Source: a virus (Duplodnaviria > Heunggongvirae > Uroviricota > Caudoviricetes). From it: a stretch of 15,456 nucleotides of DNA. Numbering within the stretch: position 1 is the first letter of the stretch; the number at the start of each line of letters is the position of its first letter. The DNA lies in IMG/VR virus record IMGVR_UViG_2698536485_000022. One strand, written 5' to 3'. Positions 5,866 to 9,511 of the stretch are shown here, piece after piece. A program made the position numbers and the translations under genes. The notes under the pieces were generated by a model. It searched no databases. It had not been told where the DNA came from and saw only the letters and a program-made list of their open reading frames with translations.

Positions 5866-6540
5866 TTAGGCCTTTATTATGTATCTTCTTGGTTTTCCTG
5901 AGAAAATCACTGTACCAATTATAGAGCAATTACCGTTGATCTTAATGTAAGGTTCAGGCCAGTTTGGGTTTAATGCTTTGAGGTAACGCTGTGTTCCATC
6001 TTCTATCAACCGCTTGAAGGTGGTTTCGCCTGTATCGTGCATCAATGCAATAACGTCGTCACCGTGGCAGGCAGGGACTTCAGGATCAACAAAAATCATG
6101 TCTCCCGGGCGGTACTCATCAATCATTGAATCACCAATCACCCGCAAGATATAAGTCATTTCGCCACAGGGTACAGGGCAGGGGTAAGTTTCTGCTGTGC
6201 TCAAATCAACCTCAGAATAGCCAACTTCTTTCCATGCTCCGGCCTGTACCCATGATATGACAGGGACTAACGTTATTTGTTTGTTAGTGATTGAAACATC
6301 AGGTTTTTTTGTGATGTTCGTGGTCTGGTGTTCTTGATCAAGCCATCCGACAGGCAGGTCGAAACATTTTTCGATGTGCCGCGCCATGCTGTCACCGATA
6401 TTTTTAGTAGCACCATCTCCCATAAACCTGCTGGTCTGGGTTGGCTCGCGATCAATCATGGTGGCAAAGGAAGAATTCCCGCCAACACCATCTCTCAGTT
6501 TTCTGGCGTTAGACCGCCGGATGTCATGGACTGTTTTCAT
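5866..6540 (-). CDS. cI: CI-type prophage repressor (N-terminal HTH, C-terminal S24 LexA-like autopeptidase)
   Basis: 224 aa from ATG 6540. C-terminal domain has the Ala-Gly cleavage site (VQAGAW), catalytic Ser in VIGDSM and Lys in TFKRL. Divergent from the cro-like gene. Confidence 0.85.
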   Translation of the reverse strand: MKTVHDIRRSNARKLRDGVGGNSSFATMIDREPTQTSRFMGDGATKNIGDSMARHIEKCFDLPVGWLDQEHQTTNITKKPDVSITNKQITLVPVISWVQAGAWKEVGYSEVDLSTAETYPCPVPCGEMTYILRVIGDSMIDEYRPGDMIFVDPEVPACHGDDVIALMHDTGETTFKRLIEDGTQRYLKALNPNWPEPYIKINGNCSIIGTVIFSGKPRRYIIKA

Positions 6541-6630
6541 AAAGAAATTAAAACCTTTGTACCGATAAGGTACAAGTATCTTGAAGGTTCATCTCAATCA
6601 TGTAATATGTATACCGGAAGTACATATTGT
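6541..6630. promoter_or_regulatory. divergent immunity-region promoter/operator segment (pRM / pR equivalents)
   Basis: Perfect palindrome TTGTACC-GATAA-GGTACAA at 6557-6575 and related TACA-TAT-TGTA at 6621-6631. Candidate pR hexamers TTGAAG (6581-6586) and TAATAT (6603-6608). Confidence 0.55.
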
Positions 6631-6831
6631 ATGAAAGCGTATTGGGACTCTTTAACCAAAGAACAGCAGGGCGAGTTGGCCGGAAAAGTTGGCTCAACAC
6701 CTGGCTACTTACGGCTGGTTTTCAATGGCTATAAAAAAGCCAGTTTTGTGCTGGCTAAAAAACTTGAGCAATGCACGTCAGGTGCAATTACGAAATCTGA
6801 CTTAAGACCGGATATCTATCCGAAAGATTAA
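6631..6831 (+). CDS. cro: Cro-like small HTH regulator (YdaS-type)
   Basis: 66 aa from ATG 6631, in frame with track ORF 6328-6831 (MKAYWDSLTKEQQGELAGKVGSTPGYLRLVFNGYKKASF ... DLRPD). Divergent from cI. The N-terminal part of the track ORF overlaps cI antisense and is rejected. Confidence 0.65.
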   Translation: MKAYWDSLTKEQQGELAGKVGSTPGYLRLVFNGYKKASFVLAKKLEQCTSGAITKSDLRPDIYPKD

Positions 6832-6862
6832 CAGAACACCTTCAATTTTTAACCACAGAACG

Positions 6863-7426
6863 ATGAGGCTAACCGTGGGTAAGCATCACTGGAAAGTAGA
6901 AAAACAGCCTGAGTGGTACGTGAAAGCTGTCAGAAAAACTATCGCGGCGTTGCCGGGGGGTTACGCTGAAGCTGCTGAGTGGCTGGATGTAACAGAGAAC
7001 GCTTTATTCAACCGCCTTCGTGCAGATGGCGATCAGATTTTCCCGCTGGGATGGGCAATGGTTTTACAGCGCGCGGCTGGCACTCACTACATTGCGGATG
7101 CTGTCGCACAGTCTGCTGGTGGGGTGTTTGTATCGCTTCCTGAAATTGAGGAAGTAGAGAACGCCGATATAAACCAGCGCCTGCTGGAAGTCATCGAACA
7201 GATCGGGAATTACTCAAAGCAGATTCGTTCGGCAATCGAAGATGGGGTCGTGGAGCCACACGAGCAGACAGCAATTAATGATGAGTTGTATCTGTCAATT
7301 TCGAAGCTCCAGGAGCATGCAGCACTGGTCTACAAAATCTTCTGCGCTCCAGAAAAGAGTGACGCCCGCGAGTGTGCAGCTCCGGGCGTCGTGGCGTTTT
7401 GTGTCTGTGGAGAAACTAACGCATGA
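6863..7426 (+). CDS. early regulatory protein, CII-like / YdaT-like family
   Basis: 187-aa ORF immediately after cro. Stop overlaps the next start (ATGA). Family call is by position and general resemblance only. Confidence 0.45.
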
Positions 7427-7814
7427 ACAGTTTAACAACACACTACCGTCGCTCGCAACTGATTGCGCTTCCTGTACCGGGTGGAAAAGCGAAGGTGGAG
7501 TATTGCTATGCAGTGAATGTACCAGGTGACAGGGAAATTGTAACCCACAGCTTTGCAGAGTGGGCTGTGGGTGATTTCAACCGGCAGAAGGAGACAGTCC
7601 TTTGCGACAAGTTAACCGCTGGTTCAAAGATCACTACGGAGTGCCCGTCAGAGTCATTCGTTGGGAGCCGGAAACACAACGGGTTATCTACCTCCGTGAA
7701 GGCTATGAACATGAATGCTTCAGTCCGCTCGAACAGTTTCGTCGTAAATTCAGGGAAATAGAGGTCGGTCATGAGCCTGTTAATGACATCCCAGCCCATT
7801 GTGATAAATCGTGA
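7423..7814 (+). CDS. uncharacterised early gene with a frame switch (frame 1 open 7423-7761; frame 0 open 7575-7814)
   Basis: ATG 7423 has GGAGAAA upstream and overlaps the previous stop. Frame 0 has AAGGAGA followed by TTG at 7602 and encodes [54 protein letters not shown]. The frame-1 tail after about 7600 is low-complexity (Ser/Asn-rich). Confidence 0.35.
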
Positions 7815-8763
7815 TCTTGCATGCCGTATTGGTCTGAATGAGGCAATTGTGTTGCAGCAGCTTCATTACTGGCTGAATGAAACGAATTCAGGCACTGAGC
7901 ATGGCGGAATTCGCTGGGTTTATAACACGACAGAACAGTGGCTGGAGCAGTTTCCGTTCTGGTCAGAGTCCACTCTGAAACGCACATTTGCAAGCCTGAA
8001 ATCACTTGGGGTTTTGCGTCGCGAGCAACTCAATAAATCGAAGCGTGACATGACCAACTTCTACACGATCAACTATGAAAGTGAGCTTTTAGAAGAGGTC
8101 AAAGTGAACGAATCCATCAGGTCAAAATGCACTTCTCCATCGGGTCAAAGTGACCTGATGGATGGGCGCAAAATGACACGATCCATTGGTTCAAAACGAC
8201 ACGCTGTCATCGGGTCAAAATGGCCCAATGATCTTACAGAGAATACAACAGAGATTACTACAGAGAATAAAACCTCTTCTCGTCCGGACGCTTCGCAACC
8301 GGACACGCAAACGGCTGAACAGGAGTTTTTAACTCGCCATCCTGATGCGGTTGTATTCAGCCCTAAAAAGCGCCAGTGGGGAACGCAGGATGATTTGACC
8401 TGCGCACAGTGGCTCTGGAAAAAAATCATCGCCCTGTACGAGCAGGCCGCCGAATGTGACGGCGAGGTGGTTCGTCCCAAAGAACCGAACTGGACAGCAT
8501 GGGCAAACGAAATTCGCCTGATGTGTGTGCAGGATGGTCGTACTCACAAACAAATCTGCGAGATGTACAGCCGCGTCAGCCGCGATCCGTTCTGGTGCCG
8601 TAACGTGCTCAGCCCGTCGAAGTTGCGGGAAAAATGGGATGAGCTTTCCCTGCGCTTATCGCCGTCCGTCAGCACGCACACAGAAAAACGTGAAGACCCG
8701 TACTTCAAAGCCAGTTACGACAACGTGGACTACAGCCAGATCCCGGCAGGATTCAGGGGGTGA
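7771..8763 (+). CDS. replication initiation protein, O-like (replisome-organizer / DnaD-like N-terminal domain)
   Basis: 330 aa from ATG 7771 with GAGG Shine-Dalgarno. N-terminus [36 protein letters not shown] ... TLKRTFASLKSLGVLRRE is typical of phage replisome organizers. Position after cro/cII. Confidence 0.75.
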   Translation: MSLLMTSQPIVINRDLACRIGLNEAIVLQQLHYWLNETNSGTEHGGIRWVYNTTEQWLEQFPFWSESTLKRTFASLKSLGVLRREQLNKSKRDMTNFYTINYESELLEEVKVNESIRSKCTSPSGQSDLMDGRKMTRSIGSKRHAVIGSKWPNDLTENTTEITTENKTSSRPDASQPDTQTAEQEFLTRHPDAVVFSPKKRQWGTQDDLTCAQWLWKKIIALYEQAAECDGEVVRPKEPNWTAWANEIRLMCVQDGRTHKQICEMYSRVSRDPFWCRNVLSPSKLREKWDELSLRLSPSVSTHTEKREDPYFKASYDNVDYSQIPAGFRG

Positions 8764-8765
8764 TC

Positions 8766-8858
8766 ATGAGTCTGTTAAATGACGTTCAGAAATTCATTGA
8801 AGCCCATCCGGGCTGTACTTCCGGAGACATTGCGGATGCTTTTTACGTGGGGGCTTAA
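8766..8858 (+). CDS. 30-aa ORF between O-like and dam, possible remnant
   Basis: ATG 8766 to TAA 8856-8858 (MSLLNDVQKFIEAHPGCTSGDIADAFYVGA). Stop overlaps the dam start (TAATG). Occupies the position where a helicase-loader gene would be expected. Confidence 0.2.
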   Translation: MSLLNDVQKFIEAHPGCTSGDIADAFYVGA

Positions 8859-9511
8859 TGAGTAATAAATATTGCCAGGCGCTGGTGGAACTGCGGAATA
8901 AACCAGCCCATGAACTGAAGGAAGTGGGAGATCAGTGGCGCACGCCGGATAACATTTTCTGGGGAATTAACACCCTGTTTGGTCCGTTTGTTCTGGATCT
9001 GTTCACTGACGGTGATAACGCCAAATGTGCCGCGTATTACACGGCGGAAGACAACGCGCTGGCGCATGACTGGTCAGAACGCCTTGCGGAGCTTAAAGGT
9101 GCTGCCTTTGGTAATCCTCCATACAGCCGCGCCAGTCAGCATGAGGGGCAATACATCACCGGCATGCGTTACATCATGAAACATGCCAGTGCCATGCGTG
9201 ATAAGGGCGGGCGCTATGTTTTCCTGATCAAAGCTGCCACCAGCGAAGTGTGGTGGCCGGAAGATGCAGATCATATTGCTTTTATTCGCGGGCGTATTGG
9301 TTTTGAACTGCCTGTCTGGTTTATCCCGAAAGACGAGAAGCAGGTACCGACAGGAGCTTTTTTCGCTGGTGCTATTGCTGTTTTTGACAAGACCTGGAAG
9401 GGACCGGCAATCAGCTACATTGGGCGCGATGAACTTGAGGCATGTGGTGAGGCGTTTCTGGCGCAGGTTCGCCAGCAGGCGGAAAAACTGGTCAGGGAGA
9501 TGGCGGCATGA
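8858..9511 (+). CDS. phage Dam-family DNA N6-adenine methyltransferase
   Basis: 217 aa with the catalytic NPPY motif (AAFGNPPYSRA). Translationally coupled on both sides. Confidence 0.8.
   Translation: MSNKYCQALVELRNKPAHELKEVGDQWRTPDNIFWGINTLFGPFVLDLFTDGDNAKCAAYYTAEDNALAHDWSERLAELKGAAFGNPPYSRASQHEGQYITGMRYIMKHASAMRDKGGRYVFLIKAATSEVWWPEDADHIAFIRGRIGFELPVWFIPKDEKQVPTGAFFAGAIAVFDKTWKGPAISYIGRDELEACGEAFLAQVRQQAEKLVREMAA

Follow-up and report, generated by a model that had tools for sequence, protein, structure and literature searches.

Probable overlapping ymfM and DUF4222 genes in the early operon of an e14-type lambdoid phage sequence

Introduction

Overlapping genes of the lambda Rz/Rz1 and phiX174 types consist of open reading frames (ORFs) on the same strand but in different frames, in which the inner ORF has its own ribosome-binding site and both ORFs are conserved. 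Here, a candidate pair of overlapping genes, ymfM and a gene of the DUF4222 family, is described in IMG/VR record IMGVR_UViG_2698536485_000022, a sequence of 15,456 nucleotides (nt) from a virus of the Caudoviricetes. The whole of this stretch is referred to as the window, and all coordinates are given on it unless K-12 is named.

The described counterpart of this locus is ymfM (b1148) of the Escherichia coli K-12 prophage e14, which has been identified as sfiC, the SOS-inducible cell division inhibitor of e14 (Ansari et al., bioRxiv 10.1101/2020.11.19.390815). In that work, the ymfM “open reading frame” in pBAD24 led to filamentation and loss of Z rings, and a ymfM deletion was used to assign SfiC; the text mentions neither DUF4222 nor an overlap (Ansari et al., bioRxiv 10.1101/2020.11.19.390815). 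ymfM has become the accepted answer to the long-standing e14 sfiC question and a tool for making filamentous E. coli. No papers linking DUF4222 with ymfM or discussing the overlap were found in the searchable literature.

Like e14, the window carries ymfK, ymfT, ymfL, and ymfM, followed by a replication gene. It differs in that the downstream gene is an intact O-like gene, whereas that of K-12 e14 is the truncated ymfN/oweE. Furthermore, ymfM is treated as one gene in the study by Ansari et al. and in the curated K-12 record, whereas the window has a second, better conserved gene in the other frame. Members of DUF4222 (PF13973) resemble the product of this second gene in being 59 to 70 amino acids (aa) long and in being encoded directly upstream of a replication initiator gene. 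The window lineage departs from the family elsewhere in that 160 nt of its DUF4222 gene are overlapped by ymfM and that the start codon used in the e14 type is TTG rather than ATG.

Results

Two probable overlapping genes at positions 7423 to 7814

The region very probably contains two real protein-coding genes that overlap out of frame within the early rightward operon of a lambdoid, e14-type phage. As a kind, such an arrangement is ordinary for phages. The features that make up the pair were as follows:

7423 to 7761, plus strand: ymfM ORF in frame 1, 112 aa, stop TAG at 7759 to 7761
7423 to 7575, plus strand: ymfM codons 1 to 51, the conserved N-terminal part of YmfM and the sole part conserved as amino acid sequence
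7588 to 7594, plus strand: Shine-Dalgarno sequence AAGGAGA, inside the variable ymfM linker (codons 52 to 60)
7602 to 7814, plus strand: DUF4222 (PF13973) gene in frame 0, TTG start, 70 aa
7602 to 7761, plus strand: 160-nt out-of-frame overlap of ymfM codons 61 to 112 with DUF4222 codons 1 to 53

A preliminary description of the window had reported frame 1 as open from ATG 7423 to 7761, frame 0 as open from 7575, an AAGGAGA motif ahead of TTG 7602, and a 70-aa frame-0 ORF overlapping an O-like start. All four were confirmed: frame 1 is a 112-codon ORF, frame 0 is open after a TGA at 7572 to 7574, the motif is separated from the TTG by a 7-nt spacer, and the TTG ORF runs to 7814, past the O-like ATG at 7771. 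The second half of frame 1, which had been called low in complexity, was so only mildly, with Ser, Thr, Ala, Gly, and Asn together making up 46% of YmfM residues 52 to 112 versus 33% of residues 1 to 51. Two genes, a −1 frameshift, and a pseudogene had all been offered as explanations, and they are weighed below.

Identity of the two products

Translated products and the surrounding sequence were compared with Pfam, NCBIfam, PHROGs, and Rfam profiles. The predicted YmfM of the window was identical to that of MG1655 (b1148; NP_415666.1; curated name “cell division inhibitor YmfM,” sfiC) at 108 of 112 residues (96%), and its gene was syntenic with K-12 ymfM, directly following ymfL with an ATGA overlap. 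YmfM matched phrog_1170 over its full length (E = 1e-69) and matched no Pfam or NCBIfam family. When the N-terminal segment was compared among relatives, at least three strongly diverged types were found, within each of which mean column identity was 81 to 84%; profile comparison with hhalign gave probabilities of 94% for type A versus type B and 51% for type A versus type C.

The frame-0 product matched DUF4222 (PF13973) as a complete domain, scoring 68.4 bits (cut-off, 27; E = 4e-19) and covering profile positions 1 to 52 of 53, with profile position 1 falling on TTG 7602. It also matched phrog_1343 (E = 5e-34). In PHROGs, ymfM and DUF4222 are two separate families, both of unknown function. 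Clustering of the DUF4222 family at 50% identity gave 74 representatives, most of them stand-alone proteins of 55 to 80 aa. The predicted model of the DUF4222 product had a predicted local distance difference test score (pLDDT) of 77, rising to about 88 in the core; it comprised five strands and a short helix and is consistent with a predicted small SH3/Tudor-like beta-barrel.

The C-terminal tail of DUF4222 (7762 to 7814 in the window; +160 to +210 in relatives) took one of two forms, a 59-aa protein ending in HEH* or the 70-aa form, and the form covaried with the replication gene family found downstream. Because the tail form tracks the replication gene family, a recombination joint seems to be placed at the replication gene ATG.

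Conservation of the pair in related loci

The pair was compared across 112 related loci with a DUF4222 alignment (32 contigs at one genome per species and 80 viral contigs), which yielded 98 distinct contexts and 74 distinct DUF4222 core sequences. The 98 contexts came from at least 10 enterobacterial genera (Escherichia, Shigella, Citrobacter, Klebsiella/Raoultella, Enterobacter, Kosakonia, Atlantibacter, Kluyvera, Buttiauxella, Pseudescherichia, and Silvania). Enterobacterial-type DUF4222/ymfM loci with 81 to 86% amino acid identity also turned up in assemblies assigned to a Firmicute (L012, Vagococcus sp. WN89Y) and to Geobacteraceae (L017, a metagenome-assembled genome); contamination or misbinning likely accounts for these odd host assignments.

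An ORF beginning MNSLT, in frame +1 with respect to the start of DUF4222, was present in nearly all 98 contexts. This ORF ended at +157 from that start, or at +160 or +163 where DUF4222 has codon insertions, and in most loci its ATG was located at −167 to −179, overlapping the stop of the upstream gene. In L009 and L011 the first ATG of the +1 ORF was further in, and in L026 and L034 the upstream side was too short to read. The exceptions were L042, in which a GTT-to-GTA change places a stop at +10, and L033, in which the frame has no stop at +157 and runs on. Wherever both the YmfM N-terminal segment and DUF4222 were detected, the frame offset between them was constant.

The DUF4222 start codon occupied the same position throughout the 74 distinct sequences, as ATG in 52, TTG in 19 (the e14 lineage), and GTG in 3, and it was preceded in relatives by a purine-rich, Shine-Dalgarno-like sequence. 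Mean column identity of DUF4222 across genera was 81%. The split into two frames was kept even in relatives with about 59% amino acid identity in the N-terminal segment and 67 to 84% in DUF4222. In more distant members (Serratia, Yersinia, and Escherichia phages), DUF4222 was found directly upstream of an O-like gene even without ymfL and ymfM, which suggests that the ymfM tail arose by overprinting on an older DUF4222 gene.

The proposal of two genes, one of them with a TTG start, was therefore borne out: homologous loci hold two separately conserved ORFs with the same overlap and the same offset, with ATG at the TTG position in most relatives. This outcome, named beforehand in the preliminary description as a refutation, counts against both a frameshift and decay.

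In Salmonella phage ST64B (L115, 1058 to 2215), phage SfV (L116, 1052 to 1888), and L033, the ymfM-like frame had no stop before the next gene and ran into Ash (PF10554) and Rha (PF09669) domains, with annotated ORFs of 278 to 385 aa. An unannotated, GTG-started DUF4222 gene lay wholly inside each of these long ORFs. The long ORF may represent either one protein or an over-extended gene call.

Selection in the two reading frames

Divergence by codon position changed frame at the junction. Between the e14 type and the Citrobacter/Klebsiella type, divergence at first, second, and third positions was 0.25/0.26/0.43 in the ymfM frame over codons 1 to 51 and 0.11/0.06/0.41 in the DUF4222 frame over the overlap; within a second lineage, the corresponding values were 0.18/0.16/0.32 and 0.15/0.10/0.42. 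The switch of coding signal at the junction is real and beyond chance. Synonymous sites of DUF4222 were as variable in the overlap (0.41) as those of ymfM were outside it (0.43), so that the YmfM tail was without detectable amino acid constraint. Consistent with this, all four nucleotide differences between the window and K-12 in the overlap changed a YmfM residue and none changed DUF4222. The tail of frame 1 was not conserved as a protein, as the preliminary description had considered it might be, but only as an open frame.

The openness of that frame exceeded expectation. Of 73 distinct sequences, 72 had an open +1 (ymfM) frame over DUF4222 codons 1 to 55, and 1 had an open +2 frame. When synonymous recoding was evaluated exactly, the mean probability of an open +1 frame came to 0.055 for E. 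coli codon usage; for the usage of the family itself, which is already biased, it came to 0.38. As a control, four distant DUF4222 genes not preceded by a ymfM-like ORF were inspected, and +1-frame stops were found in three of them, at +1 or +19; an open +1 frame is thus not inherent to the DUF4222 coding sequence.

Codon changes were counted as events by Fitch parsimony on a neighbor-joining tree. Fourfold-degenerate codons were classed as risky if a purine in the third position would give rise to a +1 stop; at these, 15 pyrimidine-pyrimidine events and 1 purine event were counted, compared to 38 pyrimidine-pyrimidine and 100 purine events at other fourfold codons (Fisher test, P = 3e-7). The sole purine event at a risky codon was the natural nonsense variant in L042. 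Codon choice at individual sites followed the same pattern. Val or Leu at codon 4, before Asn, was only GTT, CTC, or CTT; Val18, before Ile, was only GTC or GTT; and Val28, before Ile, was only GTT. By contrast, Val14, before Pro, was GTG in 24 sequences, and Leu31, before CGN, was CTG in 43. GTA or GTG at codon 16 and ATA at codon 19 were used only where the following codon began with C.

Comparison of the relatives showed that selection in the overlap acts on the amino acids of DUF4222, with the ymfM frame selected only against stops and for a fixed stop position. The overlapped part of ymfM is a clear example of a reading frame in which openness and the position of the stop, but nothing else, are conserved.

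In L042 (viral contig IMGVR_UViG_2563366891_000011), the GTT-to-GTA change at DUF4222 codon 4 cuts YmfM to 63 aa and leaves DUF4222 unchanged. A 63-aa YmfM family is also present in PHROGs (phrog_20047), suggesting that this form recurs in phage genomes. A minus-strand ORF at 7506 to 7799 (97 aa) was considered and rejected as a gene: its codons lie in register opposite those of DUF4222, of which it is a shadow, and the fact that it was open in 62 of 73 relatives, versus about 0.54 expected, is in part a side effect of Leu codon choice.

The ymfM stop and the replication gene

The 3′ end of ymfM adjoins the start of the replication gene, where the following features were identified:

7759 to 7764, plus strand: ymfM stop TAG overlapping the Shine-Dalgarno-like AGAGG of the O-like gene
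7771 to 8763, plus strand: O-like replication initiator gene (phrog_391, “replication initiation O-like,” E = 1e-101)

The O-like ATG is located 9 nt past the ymfM stop and in the ymfM frame, and DUF4222 extends 53 nt past the end of ymfM into the O-like gene, so that the first 44 nt of the latter overlap the DUF4222 3′ end. This spacing was widespread. In 95 of the 98 contexts, a TAG or TAA stop was followed 9 nt on, in the ymfM frame, by the replication gene ATG (6 nt in L030), and AGG or GAGG directly followed the stop in most of these 95. The same stop, 9-nt, and ATG spacing preceded at least five unrelated replication gene N termini (MSLLM, MSTKL, MSQIF, MNTLI, and MSRIF). In 73 of 74 sequences, the DUF4222 codon that holds the ymfM stop was xTA (ATA in 64, TTA in 7, CTA in 1, and GTA in 1), with A or G as the next base. 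Since xTA was kept through Ile, Leu, and Val codons, including otherwise rare ones, the position of the ymfM stop is conserved.

These observations are consistent with a model in which ymfM starts on the ymfL stop and would encode a conserved segment of about 51 residues plus a tail dictated by the other frame, while DUF4222 would begin inside ymfM at its own Shine-Dalgarno sequence and TTG and would encode a small, well-conserved beta-barrel protein. DUF4222 would be the older gene, with the ymfM tail overprinted on it. SOS cleavage of the cI-like YmfK repressor would then lead to both proteins from one mRNA. Ribosomes on ymfM may have to reach 7761, as the stop coincides with the replication gene's ribosome-binding site, and that gene would probably be translated through termination-reinitiation coupled to ymfM. 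A need for ribosomes to reach the ymfM stop would explain why the frame is conserved as open and not as sequence. The open-frame-only pattern points to a translational role, in coupling to the replication gene, and not to a role of the protein sequence.

Neighboring genes

The surrounding genes place the pair in the immunity and early region of an e14-type lambdoid prophage. Apart from the genes already listed, this region includes the following:

5866 to 6540, minus strand: ymfK, LexA/cI-like repressor
early region of the window: ymfT, Cro/YdaS-like gene
6863 to 7426, plus strand: ymfL, cII-like regulator, 187 aa (Pfam Phage_CP76; NCBIfam YmfL equivalog; 88% identical to K-12 YmfL)
downstream of the O-like initiator gene: N6-adenine methyltransferase gene

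The ymfL stop TGA (7424 to 7426) shares bases with the ymfM ATG at 7423, forming ATGA. An Rfam search of 6500 to 8900 returned no RNA elements, and no sigma-70-like internal promoter was found in 6400 to 8000. YmfL of the window differed from that of K-12 by a local two-residue indel near the C terminus (VAFCV--C versus VASIASGC). In a chromosome whose matched stretch (window 7350 to 7900) equals the window, the Prokaryotic Genome Annotation Pipeline (PGAP) marks ymfL as “frameshifted”; the gene is intact in the window. At 8760 to 8843, between the O-like gene and the methyltransferase gene, an identical RefSeq record annotates a short pseudogene (“hypothetical protein, incomplete, missing C-terminus”), and the replication module seems to be without an intact second gene (P or DnaC-like) there.

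Discussion

Alternative explanations

A translated but inert YmfM would account for part of the pattern. Under this explanation, the ymfM ORF conveys ribosomes from ymfL to the replication gene, and DUF4222 is the sole functional protein and hence SfiC. Selection of the tail only for openness and for stopping at the ribosome-binding site of the replication gene fits such a role, as do the lack of a confident fold for YmfM and the division of its N-terminal segment into at least three strongly diverged types when DUF4222 is conserved at about 81% per column. The 81 to 84% mean column identity within those types, together with the third-position excess, argues otherwise, since it points to selection on the peptide itself. 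We regard an inert YmfM as unlikely.

That DUF4222 is the only gene and frame 1 a chance ORF, as PGAP annotation implies, is very unlikely. A chance ORF would not be expected to keep its ATG on the ymfL stop, its length, and its stop position in nearly all 98 contexts, nor to avoid stops in the overlap far above the codon usage expectation. It would also leave the excess of third-position substitutions in ymfM codons 1 to 51, seen in two lineages, and the continuation of the ymfM-like frame into Ash and Rha domains in ST64B and SfV to be explained. What it has in its favor is that PGAP annotates DUF4222 alone in the E. coli records listed, that YmfM has neither a Pfam or NCBIfam family nor a confident fold, and that its C-terminal half is not conserved as a protein.

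A programmed −1 frameshift, raised in the preliminary description, would fuse the YmfM N-terminal segment to DUF4222 in a protein of about 125 to 130 aa, with AAGGAGA acting as a dnaX-like upstream stimulator. The frame relation is indeed −1 with a Shine-Dalgarno-like element just upstream, and a weak single-tRNA slip context, T_TTC, is present at 7575 to 7578, where frame 0 opens. No X_XXY_YYZ heptamer was found in the ymfM frame from 7423 to 7761, however, and the only A_AAG (7626 to 7629) was not conserved, the Lys codon being replaced by AGA or CGN in 27 of 74 relatives. Neither the A_AAG nor the T_TTC context was both conserved and usable in relatives. In L007, L015, L028, L031, and L033, frame 0 has a stop 3, 6, or 9 nt ahead of the DUF4222 start, so close that a shift upstream of the start is precluded. 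The DUF4222 start codon and its Shine-Dalgarno sequence are conserved at position 1 of the domain profile, and the zero frame goes on for about 52 codons and is selected open, which no frameshift site would require. Fusion proteins are recorded in databases (P0001 to P0005, P0011, and P0088), but these seven join at differing places and have 1 to 14 members each; the normal 112-aa and 59- or 70-aa forms belong to clusters of up to 1,295 members. In one fusion that was examined, GTGGGTGA had become GTGGGGGGA, an indel in a G run on a single contig. A frameshift is accordingly highly improbable.

A decaying gene or sequencing error, in which an ancestral single ORF was broken by a 1-nt indel near 7575 to 7602, would fit the switch of coding signal within about 30 nt and the few single-ORF versions on record, but it can practically be dismissed, as the window is 100% identical to a finished chromosome over the ymfM/DUF4222 stretch, the split is the norm in the related loci examined, diverged relatives included, the few fused single-ORF proteins have different junctions, both parts are under purifying selection, the DUF4222 domain is complete and begins at a start codon of its own, and stand-alone DUF4222 genes occur in phages without ymfM.

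Several points weigh against the reading of two overlapping genes. Translation of both frames is inferred from conservation alone, and PGAP made no ymfM call in the examined RefSeq records. The YmfM alignment is well conserved over residues 1 to 51 and collapses from about residue 52, so the tail is not conserved as amino acids; the structure prediction for YmfM (pLDDT 38, from 15 sequences) gave no confident fold; and the natural 63-aa variants (L042 and phrog_20047) indicate that the tail need not be present in full. The conserved “TA” at the stop could alternatively be something that the ribosome-binding site downstream requires, and the proposed coupling is deduced from geometry and open-frame selection. 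Finally, shared ancestry of the relatives means that sequence counts overstate independence; the event-based test addresses ancestry but uses a neighbor-joining tree built from a short alignment.

The SfiC phenotype and gene annotation

The two-gene reading bears on the published SfiC assignment. On K-12 coordinates, ymfM spans 1203822 to 1204160 and the DUF4222 ORF 1204001 to 1204180, with the same AAGGAGA, 7-nt spacer, and TTG. A clone of the ymfM ORF should thus include the ribosome-binding site of DUF4222 together with 53 of the 59 codons of that gene (taking the clone ends from the phrase “the open reading frame”), and a deletion of ymfM takes out most of both genes. The Z-ring-blocking SfiC activity published for ymfM is therefore not yet tied to one of the two products. 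It is conceivable, though we consider it doubtful, that e14 SfiC is the nested DUF4222 protein or that both overlapping products are needed. Were either the case, the conserved DUF4222 family, whose genes precede lambdoid replication genes, would represent a class of FtsZ-ring inhibitors.

Annotation of the locus is in systematic conflict, with the records examined listing one gene of the two. In a record 100% identical to the window, PGAP annotates the TTG ORF (WP_001250270.1) and not ymfM, and the same holds for K-12-type e14 and for all matches listed for the window stretch. Curated K-12 and phage records carry ymfM, with the same 339-nt ORF labelled YmfM in phages, and lack DUF4222; the better conserved gene is thus absent from curated K-12.

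Comparison with known systems

In sharing a same-strand, out-of-frame pair with an inner ribosome-binding site and two conserved ORFs, the locus resembles overlaps of the Rz/Rz1 and phiX174 type. It differs from them in that the inner gene would be the older and is the more constrained, continues for 53 nt past the end of the outer gene, entering a third gene, and is accompanied by an outer gene that is conserved in the overlap only as an open frame. The −1 relation and the Shine-Dalgarno-like sequence shortly upstream are shared with −1 frameshifting in dnaX and the phage tail chaperone (G/GT) genes; unlike those systems, the locus has no slippery heptamer, conserved slip site, or early zero-frame stop, and its second frame has its own conserved start. 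The ATGA of ymfL/ymfM and the stop located on a Shine-Dalgarno sequence 9 nt before an ATG are features also of termination-reinitiation in compact operons, such as the trp genes and phage early operons. Compared to coupling of the trp type, coupling at this locus is proposed from geometry and from selection for an open frame.

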